Positions 11,532 through 64,000 of a DNA stretch of 64,000 nt are shown piece by piece. How positions within the stretch are numbered: position 1 is the stretch's first letter; each line of letters starts with the position of its first letter. The notes under the pieces were generated by a model that was given only the letters and a program-made list of their open reading frames with translations, did no database searches and was not told the origin of the DNA. The translations under genes and the position numbers were made by a program. The stretch lies in NCBI GenBank assembly GCA_034679465.1, contig JAXDAV010000074.1, positions 19,949-83,948 of the forward strand, in the 5' to 3' direction. This stretch comes from Candidatus Aminicenantes bacterium. GTDB taxonomy: Bacteria > Acidobacteriota > Aminicenantia > Aminicenantales > Saccharicenantaceae.

Positions 11532-12855
11532 CGGTCTCGTCGTCAAAGACCACGTCTACACGGTCTCGCAGGTCACCGAGATCGTCAAGACCGCGCTCGA
11601 GGTGGCCTTTCCCCAGGTCTGGGTCGAGGGCGAGGTCTCGGGACACAAGAAGGCCGCCTCGGGCCACGTCTTCTTCAGCCTCAAGGACGACCGGAGCGTC
11701 ATCAAGGCCGTGATGTGGCAGTCGGCGGCCCGCCGGGTCGCCTTCGATCTCAAGGATGGCCTCAAGGTCGTCTGCCGGGGCAAGGTCAGCGTCTATGAGC
11801 CCCGGGGCGACTATCAGCTCTACGTCGATCTCGTCGAGCCCAAGGGCAAGGGCGCCCTCCAGCTCGCCTTCGAGCAGCTCAAAGAGAAGCTCCGGGCCGA
11901 GGGCCTGTTCGACGACGCGCGCAAGCGCCGGCTGCCGCTCCGCCCGCGCACGATCGGCGTCGTCACCTCGCCGACCGGGGCGGCCATCCGCGACATCCTG
12001 CGCGTCCTCGAGCGCCGCTACGCCCGGCTCCGCGTGGTCATCTATCCCGCCCGGGTCCAGGGCGAGGGCGCCGCGGCCGAGATCGTCGAGGGCCTCGACG
12101 CGCTCGGCGCCTGGCCCGGGATCGAGGTCCTCATCGTCGGCCGCGGCGGAGGCTCGATCGAGGACCTCTGGGCCTTCAACGAGGAGAAGGTGGCCCGGGC
12201 CATCGCCCGATCGCCCGTCCCGGTCATCTCCGCCGTCGGCCACGAGGTCGATTACACCATCGCCGACTTCGTCGCCGACGCCCGGGCCTCGACGCCCTCG
12301 GCGGCCGCGGAGATGGTCATCCAGACGGAGGAGGCCTTCGCCGAGAGGATCGACGCGCTGACGCGCCGGCTCGGCGAGACCTTCCGCTTCCGGGTTCAGC
12401 ATCTGCGGAGCGACGTCGACGAGCTCGCCCGCCGCCGCATCTTCCAGAACTTCGAGGTCCGGCTGGCCAACCTCGGGCGGCGCGTCGACGACCTCGAGAC
12501 GCGGGGCCGGAACGTCCTGCGGGCCGAGCGCCAGGCGCTGGCCGAGCGCAAGGGCGCCGCCGTCCTCGCGGCCGAGCGGCTGGCCCACATCCTGCGCCGG
12601 ACGGTCGGCGAGCACAAGGCGGCCTGGGAACGGCTGTCGGCCGGCCTCAACGCCTTGAGCCCCCTGGCCGTCCTCAAGAAGGGCTACACCATCGTCTGGA
12701 AGGACGGAGGCCTGCGGCCGGCCCGCCGGATCGAGGACGTCGTCCCGGGCGAGACGGTCGAGGTTTCCTTCTACAAGGGCGAGTTCAGCGCCCGGGTGGA
12801 GTCCGTCGACCGCCGCAAGCTCCTGGAATCCCGGTTCCTCAAGGAGGGAACATGA
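11515..12855 (+). CDS. xseA: exodeoxyribonuclease VII large subunit
   Basis: 446 aa with an N-terminal OB fold (VWVEGEVSGHKKAASGHVFFSLKD), followed by xseB with a 4 nt overlap. Confidence 0.9.
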   Translation: MAAKIDGLVVKDHVYTVSQVTEIVKTALEVAFPQVWVEGEVSGHKKAASGHVFFSLKDDRSVIKAVMWQSAARRVAFDLKDGLKVVCRGKVSVYEPRGDYQLYVDLVEPKGKGALQLAFEQLKEKLRAEGLFDDARKRRLPLRPRTIGVVTSPTGAAIRDILRVLERRYARLRVVIYPARVQGEGAAAEIVEGLDALGAWPGIEVLIVGRGGGSIEDLWAFNEEKVARAIARSPVPVISAVGHEVDYTIADFVADARASTPSAAAEMVIQTEEAFAERIDALTRRLGETFRFRVQHLRSDVDELARRRIFQNFEVRLANLGRRVDDLETRGRNVLRAERQALAERKGAAVLAAERLAHILRRTVGEHKAAWERLSAGLNALSPLAVLKKGYTIVWKDGGLRPARRIEDVVPGETVEVSFYKGEFSARVESVDRRKLLESRFLKEGT

Positions 12856-52400: not shown

Positions 52401-52619
52401 AACATCACCAACACCGACACCATCCAAAGCATGATCACGACGCCCAACCGCAGCAGCTTCACCGGCTACCACAACCAGATCCTGGACGGCTCGTTCGCCA
52501 CGAACTACATGTCGATCATCGCCACCCAGAGCGGGGGCATCGCCCACGCCGCCTACGGCGACTGGGAGACCCGCTTCGGCCCCTGGTCGGCCCGCCTCGG
52601 CCTCAAGCTCTCCTTCTAG
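49497..52619 (+). CDS. TonB-dependent outer-membrane receptor with an N-terminal carboxypeptidase-regulatory-like domain
   Basis: 1040 aa with a signal peptide. GRVSDQQGNPLPGVSVEATS...TDANGVYRLMALPSGTYEITYTIQGF (CarboxypepD_reg), a plug-like region, and a long barrel ending RLGLKLSF. Confidence 0.8.
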   Translation: MSKRLFILLIGCLTIGGLAFAQLTPTGQINGRVSDQQGNPLPGVSVEATSPRLIGRSVAVTDANGVYRLMALPSGTYEITYTIQGFKTLRRQGILLELSQTLALNVTLEEAAIEEQVTVIGQSPLIDVKSTVKGQVMTKEVYLALPRGRSFDSLISTIPGVQSESVTGGISVDGASGAENMFYADGADVGDFHYGDRGLNVVLELLDEVKVTASGYNAEFGGSMGGVINIITRSGSNEFHGDIMGFYENNRPYMQGHSRTFLRRDPFAAGYVYEYVNYDDDYFNGGEDRDRYNRYEGVFSLGGYIIKDKLWFFGSVNPTLSKTVAQRHFGMPSNPTPFESFRTKSTGLGGSIRLTAAPTAGLRLSAGFINNFTNYRGALPSIIGNSASDYEWDLEGYDYPHMSASLTADLSLGNNVLLSYRGGWHQSNQTNQQIAPPDSSTYQFNTSNSIYAGDPFYVSNPSLIQTQGWTNSALYTETLRYLRGKIGNNIDGTFYFNAGGEHAIKLGVGYNYIYEDRYTGAPHPRVYLYWGQTTNDLDFNIGPAADPETNPDDIYGQYGYYIVRSSFTSPYGSVWKINSNNLSVYAQDSWTIGGRLTLNYGLRAESQYMPTFTDNREYPGWTESPVSFGLGDTLAPRLGAVYDVFGDSSLKVFGSFGIYYDVMKLYMGQLTFGGSKRVEDYYALNNPDWTAIAATGVLEDANDQAAGGSNTYAGSMDYLPPSLNRVDPDMKPTSQSEISFGAEKKLFEDLSLSVRLVNKHLIRTIEDVGVYVREGDTVYQDFWVTNPGFGVSRWTTNGGQFDPMYWECPRATRDYLGLNISLEKRFSHNWQGGFNYTLSKAYGNYSGLASSDEGGRLGPSVEQDFDRWFMGYDGQGNMLDGVLPHDRTHYFKAYGSYSFPFGLTVGAVAYGRSGLPQSTKVLYNSKYFYVNGRGDMGRLPFTVWADMFMEYGLKLGGRARAAINLQVNNITNTDTIQSMITTPNRSSFTGYHNQILDGSFATNYMSIIATQSGGIAHAAYGDWETRFGPWSARLGLKLSF

Positions 52620-52645
52620 AGACCGGACCGGACATTCGAACGTCA

Positions 52646-52683
52646 GGGCCCGCCCCCCGCGGGGGGCGGGCCCTTCTTATTTC
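52646..52683 (+). terminator. rho-independent terminator after the TonB-dependent receptor
   Basis: GGGCCCGCCCCCC (52646-52658) pairs with GGGGGGCGGGCCC (52661-52673), followed by the T-rich CTTCTTATTT. Confidence 0.75.
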
Positions 52684-52699
52684 TCCCCTTTCCGGGCCC

Positions 52700-52727
52700 T
52701 TGACTATTTCCCGAAATCCCTTAATCT
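52700..52727 (+). promoter_or_regulatory. candidate promoter of the sulfatase-like gene; leaderless geometry
   Basis: TTGACT (52700-52705), a 16 nt spacer, then TAATCT (52722-52727). ATG 52737 lies 9 nt after the -10, with no SD. Confidence 0.45.
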
Positions 52728-52736
52728 GAACTCTCC

Positions 52737-54884
52737 ATGGCCAAGACGAACGAGGCCCGGCATTTCCCTGGGGGAGCGACCCTTGCGCTGGGCCTTTTCG
52801 CCGCGGTCCTGGCCGGCTGTCGGGGCGGCGGGCCGTTCCGGGCCGGGACCGCGTCGGGGCACAGCGTCCTCCTGATCACGCTCGACACGACGCGGGCCGA
52901 CCGTCTCGGCTGTTACGGCTATGGGCCGGCCGCGACCCCCCACCTCGACCGCCTGGCCCGCGAGGGCGTCCGCTTCGAGCGGGTCTATTGCCCGGCCCCG
53001 CTGACCCTGCCTTCGCACAGCTCCATCCTGACGGGCCTTCATCCGGCGACGCACGGCGTCCGCAACAACGGCCACGACCTCTCGCCGAAATGGAGGACGC
53101 TGGCCGAGATCCTGAAGGCCGGGGGATTCGCCACGGCGGCCTTCGTCTCGGCCTTCTCGGTCGATTCCCGGTTCGGCCTCGACCGGGGCTTCGACGTCTA
53201 CGACGACGCGTTCCAGCCCCCGGCGCCCCTGACGGGGGCGCACGCCGAGCGGCGGGCCGAGGAGACGTTCGCCCGATTCGCCCGCTGGCTCGACGGCCAC
53301 GGCGGGAATCGGTTCTTCGCCTGGGTCCATTACTACGACCCCCACCTGCCCTACGACCCGCCTTCGCCGTATCGTGAAGCCGCGCCCGGGCGCCCCTACG
53401 ACGGCGAGATCGCCTATATGGACCATTATGTCGGCCGGATCGTGGACGCGCTCGCGGCCAAGGGCCTCCTCGACCGGACCCTCATCGTCGTCGCCGGCGA
53501 CCACGGCGAGGGGCTGGGGGACAAGGTCGAGACCGGCCACGGCATCTTCCTCTACGAAGAGACGCTCCGCGTGCCTCTCATCATCCGCAGTCCCGGGTCC
53601 TTCCCCCGGCCGCTCGTCGTCGAGGGGCCGGTGCGGCTGGTGGACGTGGCCCCGACCATCCTGGAGACGCTCGGCCTCGCGGCGGAGGCCGGGGGCATGG
53701 AAGGCCGGAGCCTCGTCCCCTGGGTCAGGGACCCGGCCCGGCCCGGGCTCGACAGCCTGGTCGAGACCTTCTATCCCCGTGAGAACTTCGGCTGGTCGGA
53801 GCTCGTCGGGATCGTCTCCGGCCCCTGGAAATACATCCAGGCGCCCAGGCCCGAGCTCTACGACCTCGCGACCGACCCGGGGGAGAGGACGGACCTGGCG
53901 GCCTCGTCGCCGACCCAGGCGGACGAGCTCCGGAAGAGGCTCGAGGCCGAGCTCCTGAGGCTGGCCGCTCCGGCCGGCGCGTCCGGCGGGCAGGCCGTCC
54001 GGGCCGACGACCGGGAAAGACTCCGGTCCCTGGGCTACGTCAGCTTCGCTCCGGCCCGGCCGGGCGCGGCCGCCCCGGACCCGAAGGACCGGATCGGCCT
54101 GCTCAAGCTCGTCCAGCAGGCCCAGGCGTTCGAGCTCGAGGAGAAGTTCGCCGAAGCCGAGCGGGTCTATCTCCAGATCGTGGCGGAGATCCCGGATTCG
54201 CCGGAGAGCTACGTCAATCTGGCCATCGCCCAGGCGAGACAGAACAGGTTCGACCGGGCCGTGGAGACCCTCGGCCGGGGCCTGGCCCGGATGCCGGACT
54301 CCGAGACCCTGCTTGTCCGTCTCGGCCACACCTACCTCGTCAGCGGCAAGCCGGGCGAGGCCTTGGAGACGATGGTGAAGGTCCTCGGCTACAACCCCCG
54401 GAGCGTCGACGCCCTGACGGTCGCCGCGGGCATCCTCGACGCCTCGGGCCGGAAGGCCGAGGCCCGGGCGCTCTTCGAACGGGCCCTCGAGATCGAACCG
54501 GAAGGCCTCCACCTGCGGACGAGCTACGCGGCCAACCTGGCCTCTTCCGGCGCCCTCAAGGAAGCGATCGCCGTCTATCGGACGCTGATCGAAGATTTCC
54601 CCGAGGAACAGGCCTACTATCAATTCGCCGGCATCGCCCACTCGTTCCTCGGCGAATTCGATCAGGCGGTCGAGCTCCTGCGCCAGGCCCTGGCCATCCG
54701 GCCGACGCCGGTCGGCTTCTTCAATCTGGCCGTGGCCTACGAAAAGAGGGGCGACCTCAAGGAAGCGGCCGAGGCCCTGCGGATGTATCTCCGCAACTCT
54801 CGGGGTGAGAGCGAGGACAATATCCGCAAGGCCCGGGCCGAGCTCGAGACCCTGGAAAAGAAGATCGGCCGGGGCCCGTCCTGA
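52737..54884 (+). CDS. sulfatase-like (alkaline-phosphatase superfamily) lipoprotein with C-terminal TPR repeats
   Basis: 715 aa with the lipobox LAGC and an N-terminal metal site LITLDTTRADRLG. The nucleophile region APLTLPSHSSILTG has Thr in place of the Cys/Ser-x-P-x-R formylglycine motif. TPR repeats run from about residue 450 to the end. Confidence 0.75.
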   Translation: MAKTNEARHFPGGATLALGLFAAVLAGCRGGGPFRAGTASGHSVLLITLDTTRADRLGCYGYGPAATPHLDRLAREGVRFERVYCPAPLTLPSHSSILTGLHPATHGVRNNGHDLSPKWRTLAEILKAGGFATAAFVSAFSVDSRFGLDRGFDVYDDAFQPPAPLTGAHAERRAEETFARFARWLDGHGGNRFFAWVHYYDPHLPYDPPSPYREAAPGRPYDGEIAYMDHYVGRIVDALAAKGLLDRTLIVVAGDHGEGLGDKVETGHGIFLYEETLRVPLIIRSPGSFPRPLVVEGPVRLVDVAPTILETLGLAAEAGGMEGRSLVPWVRDPARPGLDSLVETFYPRENFGWSELVGIVSGPWKYIQAPRPELYDLATDPGERTDLAASSPTQADELRKRLEAELLRLAAPAGASGGQAVRADDRERLRSLGYVSFAPARPGAAAPDPKDRIGLLKLVQQAQAFELEEKFAEAERVYLQIVAEIPDSPESYVNLAIAQARQNRFDRAVETLGRGLARMPDSETLLVRLGHTYLVSGKPGEALETMVKVLGYNPRSVDALTVAAGILDASGRKAEARALFERALEIEPEGLHLRTSYAANLASSGALKEAIAVYRTLIEDFPEEQAYYQFAGIAHSFLGEFDQAVELLRQALAIRPTPVGFFNLAVAYEKRGDLKEAAEALRMYLRNSRGESEDNIRKARAELETLEKKIGRGPS

Positions 54885-54890
54885 CGGACG

Positions 54891-55424
54891 TCAGGACGCG
54901 CCGATCCGTTTCAAGCCCGCGCGCAGGGCCTCCCCCAGGGCGATGATGTCGGCGTAGTCCGCCGCTCCGCCGTCGCCGCGCCCGCGACGCAACAGGCTGA
55001 AACGCAAGCGGTTGCGCGTGTGCCGGTAGCCGAACTCGATCCCCGGATGGCCGAAGAAGAGGGTCATCATCGTCTCGGTCATCTTGGTCAGGGGCGGCCG
55101 GTCGACGTGGGAGAGCCCGAACCGGGCCGTGACCCGCGTCCCCGCTCCCGGATCGGAGGAGAGGGTCAGCCGGCCGCCGCAGAGGCCGGCGGTCTGGGCC
55201 AGGAGCGGGAGCCCGAGGCCCGTCCGCTTCCGCCCGGTCGTGTAGAACGGATCGAGGGCCCGCGCCCGCTCCTCCGCGGCCATGCCCCGGCCGTTGTCGG
55301 TCACCCGGATCGTCAGCGCGTCCCGGAGATCGCTCTCGTTGACGGCGATGAGCACGCGGGTCGCGCCGGCGGCCGCGGCGTTCTCGGCGAGATCGAGGAT
55401 GTGGAGCGAGAGGTCCTCGATCAT
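54891..55424 (-). CDS. GHKL/HATPase_c ATP-binding protein without a DHp/phospho-His domain
   Basis: 177 aa with an N box HILDLAENAAAAGA, G1 DNGRGM and G2 GLGLPL, starting directly at the ATPase fold. ATGA overlap with the upstream PHP gene. Confidence 0.75.
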   Translation of the reverse strand: MIEDLSLHILDLAENAAAAGATRVLIAVNESDLRDALTIRVTDNGRGMAAEERARALDPFYTTGRKRTGLGLPLLAQTAGLCGGRLTLSSDPGAGTRVTARFGLSHVDRPPLTKMTETMMTLFFGHPGIEFGYRHTRNRLRFSLLRRGRGDGGAADYADIIALGEALRAGLKRIGAS

Positions 55425-56167
55425 GGCCCGACGATCCTCCGGCCCTCCCGGCCCGCCAGGGCCAGGCGGATCTCCCCGAGGCCCGTTCCTTCGACCAGGA
55501 AGTCTGTCGCGGCCGCGCCGATCTCCTCCGGCGTGTGGGCGTCCGAAAAGCGGACGATCGGCAGGGGGGCCAGCGATCCGAAAGCGGCCCGGGCCTGCTC
55601 CGCCGTCAGCCGGGGGGAGACCTCGATGGCCTCCAGCGCCAGCCCCGGGGGGATGAAACCGAGCTGAGAGACGATGCTGAACGAGTCCCGGTCGACGTGG
55701 CCGGCGATGGCCAGGCCGCCGTGGCCGCGGATGAGATCGACCGCCTCCCGGACCGGGAAGAGGGTCGCCCCGAGGAGACAGCGCGGGCAGAAGCCGGTCA
55801 CGTCATCGGCGGCGTCGACGAGGACCTGGTCGGCGACGAACTTCATCTTCGCGGCGAGGTCGGGGAGGTTCCGATAGACCTCCTCCTGGAACGGGCCGAG
55901 GTCGACCCCGGCGTCGAAGAGGCCGAGGATGTGGACCTCTTCGGCCGTCGTCATCTCGATGCCCGGGAGGACGGCCAGGCCCGTCCCGGCCGCGGCCTCG
56001 ATCACGGCGCCGGCGTTCTCCGTCGTGTTGTGGTCGGTGACGGCGATGAGGTCGAGCCCGGCCGCGCGGGCCCGGTCGACGACCGCGCGGGGCGACATCG
56101 TCAGCTCGCCGCAGGGCGAGAGGCAGGTATGGATGTGGAGGTCGGCCCGGACCCGCCGGAGGGCCAT
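55421..56167 (-). CDS. PHP-domain (polymerase/histidinol-phosphatase type) metal-dependent phosphoesterase
   Basis: 248 aa, with ADLHIHTCLSPCG, IAVTDHNT, the GIEMTT motifs and C-terminal SDAH. Confidence 0.8.
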   Translation of the reverse strand: MALRRVRADLHIHTCLSPCGELTMSPRAVVDRARAAGLDLIAVTDHNTTENAGAVIEAAAGTGLAVLPGIEMTTAEEVHILGLFDAGVDLGPFQEEVYRNLPDLAAKMKFVADQVLVDAADDVTGFCPRCLLGATLFPVREAVDLIRGHGGLAIAGHVDRDSFSIVSQLGFIPPGLALEAIEVSPRLTAEQARAAFGSLAPLPIVRFSDAHTPEEIGAAATDFLVEGTGLGEIRLALAGREGRRIVGP

Positions 56168-56508
56168 CAGCTCCCCTTGACGCCCAGCGCATGGAGACGG
56201 CCGGCCAGCTCGAAGGCGCCCAGGCGGGCCCCCAGCAGCGGGATCTTTTCCCGTTCGGCCTGGGCCAAGGTTTCCGCCGTGGGCGCCCGGCCGCCGACGA
56301 GGACGACGCCGGCCAGCTCCTTGAGGACGGCCACGGCGACGATGTTCGGATGGACCTGCATGGTCACCCAGACGTCGTCCTTGCGGGCGTGCCCGATGAC
56401 GTCGGAGAGGAGGTCGCTCGCGTAGCCGCCTCCGACGGGCCGGTCGAGCTGGACGCCGGGGGTGAAGACCGTGAGATCGAGACGCGTTGCCAGATCGCTG
56501 AGGGTCAT
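56167..56508 (-). CDS. DRTGG-domain protein (113 aa)
   Basis: This is the C-terminal part of track ORF 56167..57759, starting at ATG 56508 (MTLSDLATRLDL...GGGYASDLLSDVIGHARKDDVWVTMQVHPNIVAVAVLKELAGVVLV). It matches the small DRTGG proteins found in hydrogenase-regulatory clusters. ATGA overlap with the upstream gene. Confidence 0.7.
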   Translation of the reverse strand: MTLSDLATRLDLTVFTPGVQLDRPVGGGYASDLLSDVIGHARKDDVWVTMQVHPNIVAVAVLKELAGVVLVGGRAPTAETLAQAEREKIPLLGARLGAFELAGRLHALGVKGS

Positions 56509-57803
56509 CGCTTCTCCTTCCGGCCCTTCTTCGCCCGGCCCTTGGGGACGAACGGGCAGTCCTCGAGCCGGGCGTAGCCGCGGACGATGTCGTCGGCCAG
56601 GGTCCGGCAATCGGGGGCCCCGCAGACGCCGCAGTCCTTGAGCGGCAGGCCGGCGAAGATCCTCTCCCGCCGCTTGGCTTTGCGGATGGCCTTGGCCGGG
56701 TCCCGGTCCAGGGGGCGCGGTTCCGCGGGCGTCACCGGGTGGTCGAACGAGAGGAAATTCTTGTGATAGAGGCGGCTGACGTCCTTCTGGTCGATGACCG
56801 CGTGCTCGCCCGCGGCGGCGACGAGCTCGAGGACGCGGCTCTTGGCCAGGAAGCGGTTCTCGACCCCGAGCGGCCCGCCCACGCACCCGTCGGGACAGAC
56901 CGTGCACTCGAGGAGATCGATGTCCTGGAGCAGTCCGCCCTCGACCTCGTCGAGGACGCGCATGGTGTCCCGGATGCCCGAGACGGCCACGGCCCGATGG
57001 GTCTTGAGGCCGCGCGTCTCCCCGCCGGAGAGGGGCCAGCCCATGCCCAGGCCGCTGAAGAGCGTCTCCGGGAAGAGGTGGCGCATCAGGGCGTCCTCCT
57101 CGCTCTTGCGCAGGGCCTTGAGGATCTGGGGGAAGATGTCCCGGATCGACATGGCCCCGTCGAGGTAGGACCTGGCCAGGGTGGCCGGGCTGTTGATGGA
57201 GACGATCTTGGCCGGGCAGGGCGTGATGTGAATGATGCCGATCCGCTCGGCCGGGATCCCCAGAGCCTTGGGCAGGATGGTCCGGAGGATCTTGGCGGCG
57301 ATCTCCCGCGGCGGCTCGATCGGCATGATCTGGCCGCAGAGGGAGGGGTAGCGCCGCTGGATGATCCGGACGACGACGGGGCAGGTCGAGGTGATGTAGG
57401 GCCGGGGCCCGGGGTGCTCGTCGAGATACTTCTCGGTCGCGGCGCAGTTGAGCTCGCAGATCGAGCTGAGATCGTAGACCTCGTCGAACCCGACCCGGCG
57501 CAGGGCCGACAGGATCTCGGTGGGCAGGACGGTGGGGCCGAACTGGCCGTAGATGACCGTCGAGGGGATGGCGACCTTGTAGTCGAAGGCCTCCAGCGCG
57601 GCGAACGACGTGGTATGGGAGTGGACGGCCTCGTGGGGGCAGACGCGGAGACACTCGGCGCAGTCGATGCAGAGCTGGTCGATGATGCGGGCCTTGCCCC
57701 CCTCGACCCGGATGGCCCGGGTCGGGCAGGCCGACATGCAGCGGACACAGCCGACGCACTTGTCCTCGGTGATGTGGATGGCGTGGAAGTTCCTGTCGCT
57801 CAT
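56505..57803 (-). CDS. [FeFe]-hydrogenase-like Fe-S protein, putative sensory type (2x ferredoxin 4Fe-4S + variant H-domain + C-terminal Cx2Cx4Cx16C)
   Basis: 432 aa. It has C16x2Cx2Cx3CP and C45x2Cx2Cx3CP. The H-cluster motif equivalents are ITSTCP (res 137-142), TPCPAK (194-199) and ECTVCPDGCVGGP (299-311). The C-terminus has C391GVC394GAPDC399...C416. Confidence 0.8.
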   Translation of the reverse strand: MSDRNFHAIHITEDKCVGCVRCMSACPTRAIRVEGGKARIIDQLCIDCAECLRVCPHEAVHSHTTSFAALEAFDYKVAIPSTVIYGQFGPTVLPTEILSALRRVGFDEVYDLSSICELNCAATEKYLDEHPGPRPYITSTCPVVVRIIQRRYPSLCGQIMPIEPPREIAAKILRTILPKALGIPAERIGIIHITPCPAKIVSINSPATLARSYLDGAMSIRDIFPQILKALRKSEEDALMRHLFPETLFSGLGMGWPLSGGETRGLKTHRAVAVSGIRDTMRVLDEVEGGLLQDIDLLECTVCPDGCVGGPLGVENRFLAKSRVLELVAAAGEHAVIDQKDVSRLYHKNFLSFDHPVTPAEPRPLDRDPAKAIRKAKRRERIFAGLPLKDCGVCGAPDCRTLADDIVRGYARLEDCPFVPKGRAKKGRKEKR

Positions 57804-58255
57804 GGCCTCACGTGTCCGTTCTTCCTGATGACGATGTCGAGGCGCGTCCCCCGGCCCACTTCCGAGTCGATGGCGAAGTCGTCGGCGTTCCTGCGGATGT
57901 TCGGCAGTCCCATGCCGGCGCCGAAGCCGAGCTCCCGCATCTCGGCCGTCGCCGTCGAGTACCCCTCGGTCAGGGCCAGCTCGACGTCCGGGATGCCCGG
58001 GCCGCGGTCGTCGATGGTGAGCCGGACCTCGCCGGGGGACACGGTCAGGTCCATCCGGGCGTCCCAGGCGTACATGATGACGTTCATCTCGGCCTCATAG
58101 GCGACGATGGCCGCCCGCCGCACCGTCGCCGTGTCGATCCCCAGGTCCTTCAGCAGCTCCTTGATGTCGCAGGCGGCGGCGCCGGCCCGGGCGAAGTCCC
58201 CGCCCTTGACGGGGTACTCCCGGCGGAAGACGGACTCAGCGGCGGGCATGGCCAC
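57800..58255 (-). CDS. RsbW-like anti-sigma-factor-type Ser/Thr kinase fold ATPase (HATPase_c_2)
   Basis: 151 aa. AIVAYEAEMNVIMY, DDRGPGIPD and GFGAGMGLPNI motifs resemble the N, G1 and G2 boxes. ATGA overlap with the hydrogenase-like gene. Confidence 0.7.
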   Translation of the reverse strand: MAMPAAESVFRREYPVKGGDFARAGAAACDIKELLKDLGIDTATVRRAAIVAYEAEMNVIMYAWDARMDLTVSPGEVRLTIDDRGPGIPDVELALTEGYSTATAEMRELGFGAGMGLPNIRRNADDFAIDSEVGRGTRLDIVIRKNGHVRP

Positions 58256-58592
58256 CGTCCTCGACCCGCCCGGCGATCCGCGAGCAGGCCGTGAACATCG
58301 TCATCCTGGTCGCGATCAGCGGGAGGCCCTTCGCCCGGGCCTCGGCGATGGCCTCCGCGGCCGGGCGCTTGCCCTGGACGAAGACGACCGCGGCGATGTC
58401 GGCGACGGCGCAGGCGCAGACGACGTGGGGATTGGCCAGCCCGGTCAGGAGGAGCGAGCCCGGCTCGGCGGAGGTGAGGACGTCGCTCATGAGATCGGAA
58501 GCGAAGACCTTGTGGAAGGCGGTCTCGGGGGCGGTCGCCGGGGTCAGGAGCTCGGCGTCGAGAAGGGCCAGAACGTCCTTGAGAGCGATCAT
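58236..58592 (-). CDS. DRTGG-domain protein (118 aa), paralogue of 56167..56508
   Basis: This is the C-terminal part of track ORF 58236..60197, starting at ATG 58592 after GGGAGG (MIALKDVLALLDAELL...FASDLMSDVLTSAEPGSLLLTGLANPHVVCACAVADIAAVVFV). Confidence 0.7.
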   Translation of the reverse strand: MIALKDVLALLDAELLTPATAPETAFHKVFASDLMSDVLTSAEPGSLLLTGLANPHVVCACAVADIAAVVFVQGKRPAAEAIAEARAKGLPLIATRMTMFTACSRIAGRVEDGGHARR

Positions 58593-58649
58593 GGGACCTC
58601 CCGCCGCGCCGGAATCCCGCCCGGCTTCATTATAACCCGAAGCCCGGGC

Positions 58650-58680
58650 AAAAAAAAGGGGACGAGCCCGGCCCGTCCCC
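58650..58680 (-). terminator. rho-independent terminator after the GltB-like gene
   Basis: On the minus strand, GGGGACG pairs with CGTCCCC (58658-58664 / 58674-58680 in plus coordinates), with a 9 nt loop, followed by T8 (58650-58657). Confidence 0.75.
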
Positions 58681-58696
58681 TGGATACGGCCCGCGA

Positions 58697-60283
58697 TCAC
58701 TTGGCCTTGAGGATCTCCTGGACCTCGGCCTTGTCGACGTCGGTGATGAACGGGATGGCGCTGATGTCGGCGGCCGGCTTGGTGATGGCCGCGATGTCGT
58801 CCCGGCTGATGTAGCCCAGGTTGAACTTGCGCGCGCCGGCCATCAGCTGCCGCAGGCCCTGGCTCAGCCGCTCGAAGTAGGTGTAGACGCCCATCGCCCC
58901 GGGCGGCAGGTCCTTGAACCGCTCGCCGAAGCGGTGCTTGAGCTCGGGGGCGGTGACGAAGATCTCGTCCTTGGTGCTGCCGAAGCGCTCGACATAGACC
59001 GGGATCTGGCCGTCGGAGATGCGGCCGCCGATGGTCTTCCCGACCATGGCCGCGGCCATGGGCGAGCGGGCCATGCCGACGAGCTTGACGTAGGGCGCGC
59101 CGAGGGCCAGGGCCTTGAAGATCTGGTCCTCGAAGGTGATGCCGCCGGCGAAGGCCAGATCGGGGACGTACTCGCCCTGCTGGGCCAGCTGGTCGGCGTA
59201 CTGATAGGTCAGCGACCAGATCTCGACGGCCGGGACGCCCCACTCGTTCATCATCCGCCAGGGGCTCATGCCCGTGCCGCCGCCGGCGCCGTCGACGGTC
59301 AGCAGGTCGAGCTTGGCCTTGGAGGCGAACTTGACCGCCCGGGCCAGGTCGGCCGGCCGATAGGCGCCGGTCTTGAGGAAGACGCGCTTGGCCCCGGCCT
59401 GGCGCAGCTCCTCGACCCTCTGCATGAACTCGCCCTCGTCGACCATGCCCATGCGGGAGTGGCGCTCGAACTCCTTGAAACTGCCCTTCTCGAAGGCCTC
59501 GATGACCTTGGGGTTGTCGGGGTCGGGCAGGACGATGTAGCCCTTCTTCTTCAGGGCCTGGGCCTTCTTGACGGTCTTGAGCTTGACCTCGCCGCCGATG
59601 TCCTTGGCCCCCTGGCCCCATTTGAGCTCGACCGTCTCGACGCCCAGCTTCTGGACGGCGTATTCCTGGACGCCGAGGCGGGTGTCCTCGACGTTGGCCT
59701 GGACGACGACGTCGCCGTAGCCGTCCCCCTGCCAGTCGCGGAACGACCGGACGCGGAACTCCATGTCCGGGGAGCGGACGACCTTGCCGTTCTTGAGCTC
59801 GGTCTCGTCGTCCATGCCGCAGACGTTTTCGCCGATCGTCAGGATGACCCCGGAGACGGCCGCCCCGCCGCCGAGGCCGGCCCAGTTCTGCTTGGCGATG
59901 TTGGTCGAGCCCATGCCCGAGATGACGAAGGGCAGTCTGAGCTTGAGGTCCTTGTCGCGGCCGATCCTGGTCTCGGTCGTGACCTTCTCGAACGTGGCCT
60001 TGTCGCTGTCGGCGGGGACGCCGTAGGCCCCCTTGGCCGTCCCCATGATGCTGAAGTGGGACAGGTCGATGGGGTAGTCCTTCTCGCAGGCCGCCGTGAT
60101 GATGCCGAACGGCTGCGGATAGAGGACCTCGTGGCCGCGGTAGGCGGACTTCCCGATCTCGCACATCCCGACGCAGCCGTCGACGCAGGTCACGCACATC
60201 CCGCTGAAGGGGCTGATCGATCCCTCCGTCCGGTTCTTGGTCAGGGTGGCGGCGCTTCTGTTGAGCTTGGTCATGGTCGGCAT
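58697..60283 (-). CDS. glutamate synthase-related FMN-binding protein (GltB domain-2 type) with an N-terminal Cys cluster
   Basis: 528 aa. N-terminal CVTCVDGCVGMC, a TIM-barrel region with DGAGGGTGMSP (equivalent to the GltS FMN-domain GGTGA motif), and LAFAGGI. No amidotransferase domain. Confidence 0.8.
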   Translation of the reverse strand: MPTMTKLNRSAATLTKNRTEGSISPFSGMCVTCVDGCVGMCEIGKSAYRGHEVLYPQPFGIITAACEKDYPIDLSHFSIMGTAKGAYGVPADSDKATFEKVTTETRIGRDKDLKLRLPFVISGMGSTNIAKQNWAGLGGGAAVSGVILTIGENVCGMDDETELKNGKVVRSPDMEFRVRSFRDWQGDGYGDVVVQANVEDTRLGVQEYAVQKLGVETVELKWGQGAKDIGGEVKLKTVKKAQALKKKGYIVLPDPDNPKVIEAFEKGSFKEFERHSRMGMVDEGEFMQRVEELRQAGAKRVFLKTGAYRPADLARAVKFASKAKLDLLTVDGAGGGTGMSPWRMMNEWGVPAVEIWSLTYQYADQLAQQGEYVPDLAFAGGITFEDQIFKALALGAPYVKLVGMARSPMAAAMVGKTIGGRISDGQIPVYVERFGSTKDEIFVTAPELKHRFGERFKDLPPGAMGVYTYFERLSQGLRQLMAGARKFNLGYISRDDIAAITKPAADISAIPFITDVDKAEVQEILKAK

Positions 60284-60311
60284 GATGTTACCTCCTCGAT
60301 GTCCTTCGTCG

Positions 60312-60995
60312 TTAAGATTTTTTGTCCCGGACGCAGGTGCCGCAGCGGCCCGCGTCGTACATCCAGCACTGGAGGTCGTCGTAGTGCTCCAGGCAGGTCG
60401 GTTCCATGGTCAGGCAGGCGTTGCACAGGGCCGTCTCGGCGTTCGGCCCCTGGCAGCGGAGCTGGCAGGCGGGGCAGATGTACATGCAGGCGCCGCACAG
60501 CCGGCAGACCTCCGAGCGCAGGTCGAACGGCGTCGAGATCGTCCGCTTGTGGCCCCTCTGCTGGAAGCCGATGGCCCGGGCGTCCATCTGCTCGGCGCAG
60601 ATCCGCGTGCACAGGCCGCAAAGGACGCACTCGTCGTTCCGGGGGGCGAACCGGACCTTGGTCACGCCGAAGCGGGAGGCCAGGTCCTGGAGGACCTTGG
60701 AGCCCGGCGCGGTGGAGAGCATGAGCTCGATCATCATCCGCCGCGCCGACCAGACCCGGTCGGAATCGGTCCGGACGACGAGCCCCGCTTCGGCCGGGTA
60801 GGTGCAGGACGTCACCAGCTTCGACCGCGGCCGCTCGCCGATCTCGACGAGACAGAGCCGGCAGCCGCCGAACTCCGTCAGGCCTTCGTGATGACAGAGG
60901 GTCGGGATCTCCAGGCCGTAGAACTTGGCCGTCTCGAGGACGGTCCAGCCCTCCTCGGCCTTGACGCACAAGCCGTTCAGGATGAGTTCGATCAT
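60312..60995 (-). CDS. 2Fe-2S plus 4Fe-4S ferredoxin-type protein resembling the N-terminus of NuoG/HydA/HylA, without a catalytic domain
   Basis: 227 aa. MIELILNG..TVLETA...PTLCHHEGLTEFGGCRLCLVEI (2Fe-2S fold), CVLCGLCTRIC and CRLCGACMYICP (4Fe-4S), plus extra C-terminal cysteines. 4 nt overlap with the upstream gene. Confidence 0.75.
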   Translation of the reverse strand: MIELILNGLCVKAEEGWTVLETAKFYGLEIPTLCHHEGLTEFGGCRLCLVEIGERPRSKLVTSCTYPAEAGLVVRTDSDRVWSARRMMIELMLSTAPGSKVLQDLASRFGVTKVRFAPRNDECVLCGLCTRICAEQMDARAIGFQQRGHKRTISTPFDLRSEVCRLCGACMYICPACQLRCQGPNAETALCNACLTMEPTCLEHYDDLQCWMYDAGRCGTCVRDKKS

Positions 60996-63900
60996 GTTTC
61001 ACGTCCCAGCGCATTCTTGGCGTCCCGGGTCTCGAGCTCACAGCGGAGGCAGCGCCGGGCCTCCTTCAGGGCGAGCTCCCCGGTGAAGCCGAGCTCGATC
61101 TCGTCGTGTCCCGACCGCCTCTTGCCGCGGGGCAGGTGGGGCATCCTGGCCCTCTTCGTGTTTTGGGCCTCCTCCTCGGTCAGCTTGACCGGCTCCACGT
61201 AGCAGGCCGGGCGCGTGACCTCGTTGACCCGGACGAAGGGGCGTCCCTCGAGGTAGGCCTCGATCGACCGGGCCGCGGCCTTGCCCGCGGCCATGGCCTC
61301 GACGACGCTGCTCGGGCCCGAGACGACGTCGCCGCCGGCGAAGACGCCCGGCCGGGTCGTGGCCATGCTGGCCGGGTCGACGATGATCGTGCCCCACTCG
61401 GGCGACAGCGTCAGGCCGTCGCTCTCCCTGAGGTAGGGCGTGTAGGCCCGCTCGCTGATGGCCAGGATGAGGGTATCGGCCGGCACCTGGAACTCCGACC
61501 CCGGGATGGGCACGGGCCGGGCCCGGCCGCTCGAGTCCTTCTCGCCGAGCTTCATGCGGATGCACTCGACGCCGACGACCCGGCCGTCCCGGGTGCGGAT
61601 GCGGACCGGGGCGGTCAGGTATTCGATCCGGATCCCCTCCTCGAGCCCGGCCTCGATCTCTTCGGGGTAGGCCGGCATCTCCCGCCGTGTCCGGCGGTAG
61701 AGGATCGTGGCCTCCTTCACCCGCTTGTCGCGGAAGGCGACGCGGGCGGCGTCGACGGCCGAGTTGCCGCCGCCGATGACCGCGACCCGGGCGCCGAGCG
61801 AGACCGGGATCCCGAGATGATGGTCTTTGAGGTATTCGAGGGCCTGGAGGACGCCTTCGGCCTCTTCGCCGGGGACGCCCATCTCGAGCGGCTTGTGGGC
61901 GCCCGTGGCCAGGTAGACGGCCTTGTAGCCCTGCCGGAAGAGATCGTCCAGGCTGAAGTCCTTGCCGAGCGTCATGTTGGTCTTGATGCTCAGGCCGCAG
62001 CTGACGAGGTAGTCGAGGTCGTCCTGGAGCCTCTCCTTGGGCAGGCGGTGGTCGGGGATGGTCACCCGGAGCATGCCCCCGGCGACCGGCAGGGACTCGA
62101 GGATCCGGACGGCGAAGCCCTTCTTGATGAGCTCGTAGCCCGCCGCCAGGCCGGACGGCCCGGCGCCGACGATGGCCACCTTCTCGGGCCGGGTGACGGG
62201 GAGCCTTTCGGGCGCGTCGAGGCCCTTCTCCCGGGCCCAATCCAGGACATAGCGCTTCAGGGCCCGGATGGCGATGGGCTCGCCGATCTCCCCGGCCCGG
62301 CAGACGGATTCGCAGGGCCGGCTGCAGACCCGGCCGCAGACCGAAGGGAGCGGGTTGTCCTTGCGGATGACCCGGAAGGCCTCCGCGTGCTTCTTCTGGG
62401 CGACGAGGCCGATGTAGCTCGAGGCCTCCTGGTCGATGGGGCAGGCGTACTGACAGGGCGCGGAGACGATCTCCTTGCAGACCATGGCCGGGCACCGTCT
62501 CTCGACGACGTGCTTCTCGTACTCGGGCCGGAAGTAGCGCAGAGTGGACAGGACCGGGTTGGCGGCCGTCTGGCCGAGCCCGCAGAGGGAGGCGTCCTTG
62601 ACCGCCGCCGCCAGCTCTTCGAGCAGGGCGATGTCCTCCAGGGTCCCCTGGCCGTCCGTGATCCTGCTGACGATCTCGTACATGCGCTGGGTGCCCTCGC
62701 GGCAGGAGACGCACTTGCCGCAGGACTCGTCGCGCAGGAAATTCAGGAAGTACTTGGCCAAGTCGACCATGCAGGTCTTGTCGTCCATGACGATCATGCC
62801 GCCGGAGCCCATCATGGCCCCCGCGGCCGTCAGGCTCTCGTAGTCGACCGGCAGGTCGAGGAGCTTGGCCGGGATGCAGCCGCCCGACGGGCCGCCGATC
62901 TGGACGCCCTTGATGGCCCGGCCGCCGGGGACGCCGCCGCCGATGCCGTCGACGATCTCCCGGAGGCTGATGCCCATCGGGACCTCGACCAGGCCGGTGT
63001 TGGCGATCTTGCCGACGAGCGAGAAGATCTTCGTCCCCTTGCTCGTGTCCGTGCCCAGGCCCGCGAACCACTTCGCCCCCCGGCGGATGATGTTGGGAAC
63101 GGTCGCCCAGGTCTCGACGTTGTTGTTGACCGTCGGCGAGCCCCAGAGCCCCTTGCTGGCCGGGAAGGGCGGGCGCTGCCGGGGCATGGCGATCTGGCCC
63201 TCGATCGAGGCGATCAGGGCCGTTTCCTCGCCCGAGACGAACGCGCCGGCCCCCTGGACGATCTCCAGGTCGAAATCGAAGCCCGTGCCCAGGATGTCGG
63301 TCCCGAGCAGTCCGTACTCCCGGGCCTGCCGGATGGCGATGTCGATGCGCTTGATGGCCAGGGGATACTCGTGGCGGATGTAGATGAACCCCTTCGCGGC
63401 GCCGATCGCCTTGGCCCCGATGATCATGCCCTCCAGGACCGCGTGGGGATCGGCCTCGAGGACGGAGCGGTCCATGAACGCGCCGGGGTCGCCCTCGTCG
63501 CCGTTGCAGATGATGTACTTCGGCGAGCGCTTCTGGACGGCGCAGGCGGCCCATTTCTTGCCCGTGGGGAAGCCGGCCCCGCCGCGGCCCCGCAGGCCGG
63601 AGGCGGCGATCTCTTCCAGGATGGCCTCGGGCGTCATCTCGGTCAGGGCCTTGGCCAGGGCCTCGTAGCCGTCGAAGGCGATGTACTCGTCGATCTTCTC
63701 CGGGTCGATCCGGCCGCGGTTGCGCAGGACGATGAGGCGCTGGTGCTTGAAGAACTCGATGTCCTTCATCTTCGGGACCGGCTTGTCCTCGGCCGGGGGG
63801 ACGTACATCAACTTCTTGACCGGCCGGCCCTTGAGGAGATGCTCCTCGACGAGACGGGGGATGTCCTCGGTCTTGAGAAGCTGATAGAAGATCCCGTCCG

Positions 63901-64000
63901 GCTGGACCATGACGATGGGGCCCCGCTCGCAGAACCCGTTACAGCCCGTGGCGATGACCTGGACCTCGTCCTGGAGGCGCCGCCTGGCGATCTCCTGCTC
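60992..64000 (-). CDS. fusion flavoprotein: thioredoxin-like 2Fe-2S + NuoF/HydB-like (FMN, NADH, 4Fe-4S) + GltD/NfnB-like (2x 4Fe-4S, FAD, NAD(P)H); the N-terminus lies beyond the right window edge
   Basis: The frame stays open upstream of the track M at 63910 to position 64000 (..VIATGCNGFCERGPIVMVQPDG, a Trx-like 2Fe-2S motif). NuoF motifs are GRGGAGFPTGKKW and ESCGKCVSCREG..LCGLGQ. GltD motifs are PLPSVCGRVCSRPCESVC, VAIVGAGPSGLAAGYEL and VAVIGGGNSAVDAAR. Confidence 0.85.
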   Translation of the reverse strand, partial: EQEIARRRLQDEVQVIATGCNGFCERGPIVMVQPDGIFYQLLKTEDIPRLVEEHLLKGRPVKKLMYVPPAEDKPVPKMKDIEFFKHQRLIVLRNRGRIDPEKIDEYIAFDGYEALAKALTEMTPEAILEEIAASGLRGRGGAGFPTGKKWAACAVQKRSPKYIICNGDEGDPGAFMDRSVLEADPHAVLEGMIIGAKAIGAAKGFIYIRHEYPLAIKRIDIAIRQAREYGLLGTDILGTGFDFDLEIVQGAGAFVSGEETALIASIEGQIAMPRQRPPFPASKGLWGSPTVNNNVETWATVPNIIRRGAKWFAGLGTDTSKGTKIFSLVGKIANTGLVEVPMGISLREIVDGIGGGVPGGRAIKGVQIGGPSGGCIPAKLLDLPVDYESLTAAGAMMGSGGMIVMDDKTCMVDLAKYFLNFLRDESCGKCVSCREGTQRMYEIVSRITDGQGTLEDIALLEELAAAVKDASLCGLGQTAANPVLSTLRYFRPEYEKHVVERRCPAMVCKEIVSAPCQYACPIDQEASSYIGLVAQKKHAEAFRVIRKDNPLPSVCGRVCSRPCESVCRAGEIGEPIAIRALKRYVLDWAREKGLDAPERLPVTRPEKVAIVGAGPSGLAAGYELIKKGFAVRILESLPVAGGMLRVTIPDHRLPKERLQDDLDYLVSCGLSIKTNMTLGKDFSLDDLFRQGYKAVYLATGAHKPLEMGVPGEEAEGVLQALEYLKDHHLGIPVSLGARVAVIGGGNSAVDAARVAFRDKRVKEATILYRRTRREMPAYPEEIEAGLEEGIRIEYLTAPVRIRTRDGRVVGVECIRMKLGEKDSSGRARPVPIPGSEFQVPADTLILAISERAYTPYLRESDGLTLSPEWGTIIVDPASMATTRPGVFAGGDVVSGPSSVVEAMAAGKAAARSIEAYLEGRPFVRVNEVTRPACYVEPVKLTEEEAQNTKRARMPHLPRGKRRSGHDEIELGFTGELALKEARRCLRCELETRDAKNALGRET

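Follow-up and report, generated by a model that had tools for sequence, protein, structure and literature searches.

A candidate Bfu-type multi-flavin enzyme with a GltB-like subunit and an interchangeable NfnL/GltD module in Candidatus Aminicenantes and other phyla

We analysed a stretch of 64,000 nucleotides (nt) from a Candidatus Aminicenantes bacterium (GenBank assembly GCA_034679465.1, contig JAXDAV010000074.1, positions 19,949 to 83,948), hereafter the window, whose coordinates are used throughout. At its right-hand end lie three genes, all on the minus strand, predicted to encode a fusion of a BfuB subunit with an NfnL/GltD-type module, a short BfuA protein and a GltB-like protein with a putative flavin mononucleotide (FMN) site. 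Together these genes support the assignment to a Bfu-type (HydABC-derived) multi-flavin Fe-S enzyme without a hydrogenase. The features that define them are the following (aa, amino acids; ORF, open reading frame; FAD, flavin adenine dinucleotide; PDB, Protein Data Bank).

60992..64000, minus strand: bfuB::nfnL(gltD) fusion gene, with 1002 codons inside the window (ORF, translation, protein P0001, and Pfam, NCBIfam and PDB matches)
63806..64000, minus strand: C-terminal stretch of the BfuB thioredoxin-like [2Fe-2S] domain, which holds cluster B5, with GCNGFC at 63929-63943 and CAGTGC outside the window
62507..63706, minus strand: NuoF/HydB core of BfuB, with the FMN/NADH site GRGGAGFP and CNGDEGDPGAF and the [4Fe-4S] cluster B1 at ESCGKCVSC...LCGLG
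62477..62512, minus strand: B2/Zn-site motif H-x5-C-x4-C (EKHVVERRCPAMVC), also the fusion junction (alignment to 7t2r_B, 7q4v_B and 8oh5_B)
61031..62488, minus strand: NfnL/GltD-type module, with sites for two [4Fe-4S] clusters (CQYACP; CGRVCSRPCESVC), for FAD (VAIVGAGPSGLAAG) and for NAD(P)H (VAVIGGGNSAVD followed by YRRTRREMPA)
61028..61156, minus strand: C-terminal tail of the fusion (...HDEIELGFTGELALKEARRCLRC; alignments to NfnL/NfnA structures)
60312..60995, minus strand: short BfuA, 227 aa (PF13510, PF12838, 9mqx_A)
58697..60283, minus strand: GltB-family FMN/Fe-S subunit, 528 aa (PF01645 at 6.8e-19, motif alignment, AlphaFold2 (AF2) model)
60161..60196, minus strand: N-terminal Cys motif of that subunit, C30-x2-C33-x3-C37-x3-C41 (SGMCxTCxDGCxGMC, invariant in 70 sequences)

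The frame of the fusion is open at 64000, where its translation starts EQEIARRRLQDEVQVIATGCNGFCERGP..., and stops at 60992. A 100% identical protein on a 121-kb NCBI contig (P0001) has a full length of 1030 aa, placing 28 N-terminal residues beyond the window. The thioredoxin-like 2Fe-2S site has its first two Cys among these residues (MKQYRAHLLVCAGTGC), and its predicted ligands in P0001 are C11, C16, C48 and C52. Within the window, the fusion matches the 2Fe-2S ferredoxin model NF041612 at residues 2-65. The fusion gene overlaps the gene for the 227-aa BfuA by 4 nt (ATGA; ORFs 60992..63910 and 60312..60995), which is followed after 28 nt by the gene for the 528-aa GltB-like protein. We read the region upstream of 64000 from the syntenic relatives L001 (90% identity) and L002 (95%). 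In both of these and in L003 (90-95% identical), a NuoE-like gene of 183-200 aa (PF01257; CLVCLGTAC...CLGCC) precedes the fusion and is joined, directly upstream of it, by a gene for an HndB-like thioredoxin-type 2Fe-2S protein of 130 aa. With confidence a little better than even, we place the window genes as the last three of a five-gene operon ordered nuoE-like bfuC, hndB-like 2Fe-2S gene, bfuB::nfnL/gltD, short bfuA and gltB-family FMN/Fe-S gene. An earlier note, made from the letters of the window alone, had described a Trx-2Fe2S/NuoF/GltD fusion open at the window edge, overlapping by 4 nt a 227-aa protein equivalent to the N-terminal part of NuoG/HydA. Every feature that it listed was recovered, and the second protein is borne out by the ORF coordinates and by its two ferredoxin-type Pfam domains. 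The note proposed to look beyond 64000 for the N-terminus and any NuoE/HydC-like gene; the 28 residues of P0001 and the BfuC and HndB-like genes of L001-L003 indicate what probably lies there.

Pfam domains follow one another along the fusion as Complex1_51K (PF01512; residues 131-302, 4.9e-46), NADH_4Fe-4S (PF10589; 413-497, 4.8e-34), Fer4_20 (PF14691; 505-593, 1.8e-24) and Pyr_redox_2 (PF07992; 607-906, 9.6e-29). The NuoF model TIGR01959 matches residues 99-498 (1.5e-146) with 488 bits; its equivalog cut-off is 558, which a relative other than NuoF would be expected to miss. Among PDB entries, the N-terminal half is closest to the BfuB/HydB chains of bifurcating enzymes, led by 7t2r_B (7.5e-222) and followed in rank by 7q4v_B, 9n5u_B, 9bov_B, 9mqx_B, 8a6t_B, 8oh5_B and 7p5h_B. 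The B2 site of these enzymes is defined by the ligands C, C/T, H, C and C, of which the His is absent in non-bifurcating homologues (PMC9304861), and it binds Zn in most solved Bfu members (PMC12318220). The fusion has both upstream ligands, C in TCMVD and T in RITDG, and these two stretches and EKHVVERRCPAMVC line up with C438, C476, H525, C531 and C536 of Acetomicrobium mobile. By these sequence features, the N-terminal half is BfuB and not plain NuoF. Alignment to all BfuB structures is confident up to the B2 motif and degenerates beyond it, and the Fer4_20 dicluster domain of the NfnL/GltD module begins 7 residues after the motif. This leaves no room for the ferredoxin-like B3/B4 domain, whose Cx2Cx2Cx3C motif is absent from the fusion. 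More than 100 near-full-length homologues from independent assemblies (1014-1056 aa, 67-95% identity, many labelled Aminicenantes) share the same Pfam string. Among 1.84 billion cluster representatives, searched exhaustively, about 10 further 50%-identity clusters were matched almost from end to end.

In the C-terminal half, the FAD motif GAGPSGLAAG and the NAD(P)H motif GGGNSAVD ... YRRTRREMPA are intact. We take the RR motif within YRRTRREMPA to be of the NADPH type, from its counterparts in NfnB and GltD. NCBIfam models, 'putative NADPH-dependent glutamate synthase small subunit' among them, match the module (PRK12771 and PRK12814), and its best PDB relatives are the GltD-like modules of NfnA/StnC (9bov_A, 8.7e-110; 9n5u_A) and NfnB/NfnL (4ylf_B, 1.6e-91); E. 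coli GltD is more distant (34% identity). The last residues of the fusion had been described as an extra tail of about 100 aa ending in CLRC, but they are not an addition: HDEIELGFTGELALKEARRCLRC matches T. maritima NfnB (4ylf_B) at residues 5-43 and P. furiosus NfnI-L (5jca_L) at residues 10-49, and an equivalent tail is already in place in the NfnA/StnC subunits of Nfn-Bfu enzymes (9bov_A 466-567, 8oh5_C 466-566). On these alignments, the tail is the NfnL/GltD N-terminal element in circularly permuted position, predicted to give the dicluster domain its first two Cys. The Fer4_20 match begins only at profile position 21 because this first element has moved to the C terminus.

The 227-aa protein consists of Fer2_4 (PF13510) and Fer4_7 (PF12838) domains, and its best PDB match is WorA (9mqx_A, 247 aa, 4.3e-37). 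Its predicted clusters are the [2Fe-2S] cluster A1 (C34, C45, C48 and C64) and two [4Fe-4S] clusters (C123/126/129/133 and C164/167/170/174); the His-ligated A3 motif and a catalytic C-terminal domain are absent from the protein. Nineteen Cys residues are kept in 78 orthologues, with seven of them in a C-terminal tail that may bind a further cluster. This arrangement closely resembles WorABCSL of Acetomicrobium mobile (9MQX, PMC12318220; 'Type 2' Bfu, Schut et al. 2022), which likewise joins a BfuBC core to a short BfuA. In both systems BfuA has about 230-250 aa, carries A1, A2 and A4 and lacks A3 and any H-cluster or formate dehydrogenase-like domain, and in both its C terminus contains Cys residues. 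The WorA C terminus is a zinc finger with an adaptor helix that docks extra, separate catalytic subunits (PMC12318220). Three differences stand out: the partner here is an FMN/Fe-S protein of the GltB family in place of the tungstopterin WorSL nanowire, the BfuA tail has seven conserved Cys where WorA has a 4-Cys zinc finger, and BfuB has lost its ferredoxin-like domain. Judged from its sequence, the organization is that of a Type 2 Bfu enzyme, a short BfuA with a separate catalytic subunit, and in that respect is closest to WorABCSL.

The sole Pfam match of the 528-aa protein is PF01645 (Glu_synthase) at residues 279-401 (6.8e-19, 68.7 bits against a cut-off of 20.4), covering profile positions 184-303 only. 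Across 70 orthologues from bacteria and archaea, 191 of its 528 positions are at least 97% conserved, with a minimum pairwise identity of 59%. Pairwise alignment to E. coli GltB brings five motifs into register: RLGV/RFGV, KWGQGAKDIGGE/KVAQGAKPGEGG (where the E. coli stretch contains QGAKPGEGG), RHSR/PHHD, GGGTGMSP/DGGTGASP and AGGI..ED..KA..LGAP/DGGL..D..KA..LGAE. A first AlphaFold run from a shallow alignment gave a mean predicted local distance difference test (pLDDT) score of 54 and generic Foldseek matches only. The second run, with more diverse homologues, produced an FMN-type TIM barrel (pLDDT 77.8, predicted template modelling score (pTM) 0.82). The sequence reads as a remote PF01645 subfamily, and we presume that the protein is the subunit at which the third substrate of the enzyme is converted. 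Its N-terminal C30-C41 motif is presumed to hold an Fe-S entry cluster that replaces the canonical 3Fe-4S site of GltB.

To survey this protein family, we scanned one genome per GTDB species with an alignment of the GltB-like protein, revealing at least 571 matching stretches, and compared the loci of the best 80 of these matches (each at least 67% identical). Bacterial carriers include Aminicenantes, Zixibacteria, Planctomycetota, Latescibacteria, Acetothermia, Bacteroidota/Ignavibacteria, Eisenbacteria, Actinomycetota and Bacillota, among others, and archaeal carriers include Thermoplasmata, Methanophagales and Altiarchaeales. The gene order BfuC, BfuB, short BfuA, GltB-like is kept in essentially all 80 loci, the exceptions being contig-truncated loci and two others (L036 and L074) in which the GltB-like gene alone was detected. 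BfuB was informative in 70 loci. It is a BfuB::NfnL fusion without the Cx2Cx2Cx3C motif in 44 of these; in the other 26 it is a protein of about 616 aa that ends in the canonical 2x[4Fe-4S] ferredoxin-like domain, each with two Cx2Cx2Cx3C motifs. The CPxxxC motif immediately precedes the junction in every case. When the BfuB cores are placed on a neighbour-joining tree, built without support values, the two states interleave with at least eight switches between close relatives. For example, L023 and L024 (unfused) are sister to the window's own clade L001-L003 (fused). One Aminicenantes locus (L037, 2435-11572) carries both forms in tandem, a fused BfuC-BfuB::NfnL and an unfused BfuC-BfuB with two short BfuA genes, ahead of a single GltB-like gene. 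Because of this split, its interleaving on the tree and the locus with both states, the conserved enzyme is BfuCBA with the GltB-like subunit, and NfnL/GltD is an optional cassette interchangeable with the ferredoxin-like domain. The earlier note had this the other way round, with two fused Bfu modules to which a GltB domain was appended.

Several loci depart from this arrangement in detail. BfuC has about 282 aa in many phyla (for example, L072:5203-6054 and L049:5241-6089), with a C-terminal extension of about 120 aa whose CxxC pairs (CARCNH...CPHCH...CGECG...CSRRGC) have the look of a zinc ribbon; in the window's lineage BfuC is short, at 183-200 aa. Two GltB-like paralogues lie close together in a Dethiobacter-type locus (L027:4126-5709 and 9998-11581) and in an Altiarchaeales locus (L046:8266-9846 and 10270-11859). 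In L023 (7371-9944), an unfused-type BfuB and BfuA share one ORF of 857 aa, which is either a real fusion or an effect of sequencing or ORF calling. Stand-alone GltD/NfnL-like genes of 454-474 aa sit beside the module in an Aerophobetes locus (L025:4163-5587), on top of the fusion, and in an archaeal locus (L036:1943-3307, minus strand).

We also took a census of the neighbours, for which all flanking ORFs of the 80 loci were clustered and representatives were scanned against Pfam, revealing the following.

Glutamate dehydrogenase (GDH): 14 of 80 loci
Glutamine synthetase (GS): 10 of 80 loci
Sigma-54 NtrC-type response regulator: 24 of 80 loci
GAF-HisKA kinase: 19 of 80 loci

Overall, GDH or GS occurs within 10 kb of 22 of the 80 loci, compared with about 1% expected by chance according to our estimate from gene counts. 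At loci in several phyla, the operon strand carries a strict sigma-54 consensus, TGGCA[CT]-N5-TTGC[AT], at a distance of 350-500 bp ahead of bfuC, and in L072 an identical 16-mer sigma-54 site also precedes a GDH gene. Between the sigma-54 promoter and bfuC we observed a gene for a small protein (95-120 aa) that matches no Pfam family and has two GLCxTC...C...P(V/I)..CEE(Y/F) repeats (L072:4845-5180, L049:4832-5185, L065:4694-5056 and 13 further loci; Zixibacteria, Planctomycetota and Bacteroidota are among the lineages). It is absent in the window's lineage and may be a metal-binding accessory subunit.

Given this gene content, the reading towards which we lean, slightly rather than firmly, is a new Bfu-type enzyme that acts on 2-oxoglutarate/glutamate and is coupled in the window's form to NADH and NADPH instead of ferredoxin. 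Of the two options in the earlier note, a glutamate-synthase-like reductase or a transhydrogenase variant, the former is the better one. The five-gene operon would encode a soluble complex in which the BfuB FMN takes NADH. One branch would lead from B1 through the 2Fe-2S/4Fe-4S clusters and Cys-rich tail of the short, WorA-like BfuA to the N-terminal Fe-S site of the GltB-like subunit and on to its FMN, where the third substrate would be reduced or oxidized. We place the third site there because the 26 unfused loci carry no other catalytic module. Its substrate is most probably the couple 2-oxoglutarate plus ammonia/glutamate, with ammonia favoured because no glutaminase domain is present. The second branch would run via the BfuC cluster C1 to the B3/B4 position. 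In unfused orthologues it would end at ferredoxin, a site for which has been seen between the BfuC C-terminal domain and B3/B4 in Tsi NfnABC (PMC12018979). In the window's fused form it would end at the dicluster-FAD-NADP(H) site of NfnL, because the NfnL/GltD module has replaced the B3/B4 domain.

The couple 2-oxoglutarate plus NH4+/glutamate has a potential of about -0.13 V. Physiological potentials are -280 mV for NADH, -380 mV for NADPH and -500 mV for ferredoxin (PMC9304861, Table 1). Exergonic reduction of 2-iminoglutarate by NADH would then drive the endergonic reduction of the lower-potential partner. The most likely net reaction would be 2 NADH + 2-oxoglutarate + NH4+ + NADP+ (unfused: oxidized ferredoxin) <-> 2 NAD+ + glutamate + NADPH (reduced ferredoxin), which would balance because the mean of the two acceptor potentials matches that of NADH. 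In lactate dehydrogenase-EtfAB and butyryl-CoA dehydrogenase-EtfAB, NADH is likewise the mid-potential partner, with an organic couple at high potential and a further partner at low potential, all coupled at one flavin site; these are unrelated families, and the analogy is one of logic and not of homology. Alternatively, in the style of Schut et al., NADH and NADPH or ferredoxin might both donate electrons to a high-potential substrate. A broader proposal, which we regard as tentative, is a pan-phylum bifurcating class ('Glt-Bfu') in which NADH-dependent amination of 2-oxoglutarate drives the uphill reduction of ferredoxin (unfused) or NADP+ (fused), and in which the low-potential acceptor module has been swapped repeatedly at one fixed BfuB junction. 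If this is true, nitrogen assimilation would itself generate low-potential reductant.

Several points weigh against a bifurcating, glutamate-linked enzyme. In the Bfu literature the BfuA branch delivers mid-potential electrons and NAD is the high-potential acceptor, and bifurcation is not required for a third substrate of high potential. The B3/B4 domain by which the canonical Bfu core is defined is missing in the fused protein. There is no GDH, GS, NtrC or canonical gltB in the window, where the locus adjoins instead a hydrogenase-like sensor cassette, and its relatives have a Hox-type NiFe hydrogenase. The matching genomes are all metagenome-assembled genomes (MAGs) among the matches listed, and a search for a cultured carrier, seeded with a Bacillota (Dethiobacter-type) homologue, returned MAG proteins only. 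As for the GltB-like protein, the canonical 3Fe-4S ligands are absent, with no Cys where E. coli GltB has C1102-x5-C-x4-C, and the amidotransferase, central and GXGXG domains of GltB were found neither in the protein, nor within +-10 kb of the 80 loci, nor elsewhere in the window. An hhalign comparison with E. coli GltB reached 34% probability over 151 columns (residues 322-497), no NCBIfam model covers the protein, and a PDB sequence search (phmmer) gave no match. A PDB profile search likewise found no GltB and returned de novo TIM barrels only, which are meaningless here. The earlier description of a stand-alone GltB FMN domain therefore stands as to the PF01645 match, the Cx2Cx3Cx3C motif and the lack of a glutaminase domain, with the qualification that this is a remote subfamily without the canonical 3Fe-4S site.

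Known glutamate synthases (NADPH-dependent GltBD, archaeal split forms and the F420-dependent FGltS) share with the GltB-like protein the PF01645 barrel and the motifs RFGV, QGAK..GG, HH and GGTGxSP. They also receive electrons via Fe-S clusters from a separate flavin module, and FGltS offers a precedent for an alternative input module. The protein described here differs in lacking the amidotransferase, central and GXGXG domains, in having an N-terminal Cx2Cx3Cx3C motif in place of the Cx5Cx4C site and in showing no significant sequence match to any solved GltB.

This distance leaves room for the same Bfu-type complex with another substrate at the FMN subunit, such as a 2-oxo or 2-hydroxy acid (of the lactate or 2-hydroxyglutarate type), another imine (with chemistry of the N-methylglutamate type) or an as yet unrecognized acceptor, tied to NADH and NADPH or ferredoxin in the manner of Ldh-EtfAB. 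We rate this as rather improbable, although it deserves serious weight. The Foldseek top 50 of the better model consists of alpha-hydroxy-acid FMN oxidases, IMPDH and IDI-2 and holds no GltB; the best matches are lactate monooxygenase/oxidase, flavocytochrome b2 and glycolate/mandelate oxidases (6.5e-11 and weaker, target-length-normalized TM scores of 0.55-0.68). The weak sequence likeness to E. coli GltB and the lack of nitrogen genes at the window locus point the same way, and PF01645 also includes subunits of N-methylglutamate synthase (PMC6237917). On the other hand, PF01645 is the only Pfam family to match, to the exclusion of FMN_dh, the five motifs kept in register belong to the GltB synthase site, and the GDH and GS genes beside 22 of the 80 loci come with NtrC-type regulators. 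The fold comparison supports only a place in the FMN TIM-barrel superfamily for the modelled protein.

It is unlikely, in our view, that the enzyme is a non-bifurcating glutamate synthase, in which NfnL/GltD and the GltB-like protein would form a minimal alpha-beta pair like that of GltBD, working on NADPH, with BfuBC as an independent and uncoupled NADH entry. The pairing of a GltD-type with a GltB-type protein does mirror GltBD, a substrate at about -0.13 V could be reduced by either nicotinamide without coupling, and Bfu enzymes with high-potential third substrates also appear in Schut et al. This account sits poorly with the 26 of 70 loci that lack a GltD module and still keep BfuCBA and the GltB-like gene, so that a GltD-GltB pair is not what is conserved. 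Moreover, the module occupies the place of B3/B4 on the low-potential branch and not a place beside BfuA, and the B2/Zn site, B5 and BfuC are all retained.

A variant of the Sporomusa-type Nfn transhydrogenase (StnABC/NfnABC), working on NADH, NADPH and ferredoxin with the GltB-like gene as an unrelated neighbour, is very unlikely. Its appeal is clear, since NuoE-, NuoF-, GltD- and NuoG-N-terminal-like parts make up the Nfn-Bfu parts list. NfnABC/StnABC (8OH5, 9N5U, 9BOV) shares with the window's enzyme the BfuB core, BfuC and an NfnL/GltD FAD/NADPH module with two 4Fe-4S clusters and the permuted 'RCLxC' tail, and the module is nearest to NfnA/StnC. In those enzymes, however, a long BfuA carries the module on the mid-potential input branch and BfuB has retained B3/B4 to serve ferredoxin, whereas here the module sits at the BfuB C terminus in the place of B3/B4, next to a 227-aa BfuA of the adaptor type used with extra catalytic subunits and an additional FMN subunit. 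The GltB-like gene keeps its place beside the Bfu genes in essentially all 80 loci and lies 28 nt downstream here, and unfused forms would be left without a third substrate. We therefore rejected membership of StnABC/NfnABC, to which the parts had previously been likened, and kept the Bfu-type assignment from the same comparison.

The chance that the fusion is an assembly or frameshift artefact joining a nuoF-like and a gltD-like gene, a check proposed earlier for the junction, is negligible given the continuous frame, the more than 100 homologues, the same junction in 44 of 70 genome loci, the further clusters and a published HydB-GltA fusion.

That published fusion occurs in archaeal group F hybrid [FeFe]/[NiFe] hydrogenases, where a NuoF-like HydB is likewise joined to a GltA/GltD-type domain, so that a HydB-GltA(GltD) fusion alone is not new (PMC11216029). 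The GltA domain on the archaeal HydB was proposed as a low-potential acceptor site (Greening et al. 2024, PMC11216029). The partners of that protein are hydrogenases, with no GltB-family FMN subunit, and we liken the two junctions by architecture alone. A characterized enzyme with the exact architecture of the window's genes was found neither in the PDB nor in the searchable literature.

Among flavin-based bifurcating enzymes, the Bfu class is at present the least understood. The third substrates catalogued for them are H2, formate, NADPH, F420, aldehydes, CO, pyruvate, quinone and H2O2, with none linked to amino acids or nitrogen, and glutamate, GltB or a cluster of this kind is absent from the 2022 Bfu catalogue and its supplement. 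The module described here is widespread, highly conserved and uncharacterized, and its GltB-like subunit is among the most conserved proteins between the phyla that carry it. The recurrent swap of B3/B4 for an NADPH/FAD module amounts to a natural experiment on where and how the low-potential branch leaves the Bfu flavin/cluster site. Should the link to glutamate hold, nitrogen assimilation or amino-acid fermentation would be tied to the ferredoxin and NADPH pools of anaerobes.

Downstream of the GltB-like gene lies a group of sensory genes, separated from it by a strong intrinsic terminator.

58649..58681, minus strand: intrinsic terminator after the GltB-like stop, with an 11-bp stem (58681-58657) containing 8 G-C pairs, a 3-nt loop and a T8 tract
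54891..58592, minus strand: sensory cassette (Pfam), a separate transcription unit here
58236-58592, minus strand: DRTGG gene of the cassette, with ATG at 58592 behind a GGGAGG ribosome-binding site
57800-58255, minus strand: HATPase anti-sigma-kinase-like gene (Pfam)
56505-57803, minus strand: [FeFe]-hydrogenase-like sensor, 432 aa, with the motifs TSTCP, TPCPAK and ECTVCPDGCVGG
Between the hydrogenase-like sensor and the PHP gene, minus strand: second DRTGG-like gene of the cassette (Pfam)
55421-56167, minus strand: PHP gene (Pfam)
54891-55424, minus strand: HATPase gene (Pfam)

Such a sensory cassette accompanies many HydABC operons. Among the 80 loci, it adjoins the module only in L001-L003, L016, L023 and L028, lineages that also have the HndB-like gene. 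It lies upstream in L016 and is embedded in the operon, between bfuC and the hndB-like gene, in L028. The cassette is a lineage-specific companion of the enzyme and a separate transcription unit at the window locus, and a role as an obligatory part of the system is ruled out by the terminator and the patchy co-occurrence. The idea in the earlier note that the two blocks form an integrated system is accordingly weak here, where the cassette has its own ribosome-binding site and start codon; its embedding in L028 speaks in favour. A TATAAT-like box (ggttataatg, around 58630) lies ahead of the DRTGG gene. The 432-aa protein retains the Cys motifs of the H-cluster, but L1 reads TSTCP and not TSCCP. 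It also has a pair of 4Fe-4S motifs at the N terminus and a PF04060 'FeS' domain at the C terminus, and it looks like the sensory, non-catalytic type.

On the other side of the operon, further upstream in L001 and L002, lies a HoxFUYH-type NiFe hydrogenase with hypA and hypB. In these closest relatives (L002:1189-7291, L001:2781-8772), a HoxF(E-fused)UYH-type hydrogenase, a cobW/hypB-like gene and hypA are directly upstream of the Bfu operon, and the window's own contig probably continues beyond 64000 with the same block. Downstream of the cassette, window positions 49497-54884 encode an outer-membrane protein of 1040 aa (CarboxypepD_reg/TonB-dependent-like) and a sulfatase-TPR protein of 715 aa, both ordinary-looking and shared with L001 and L002.

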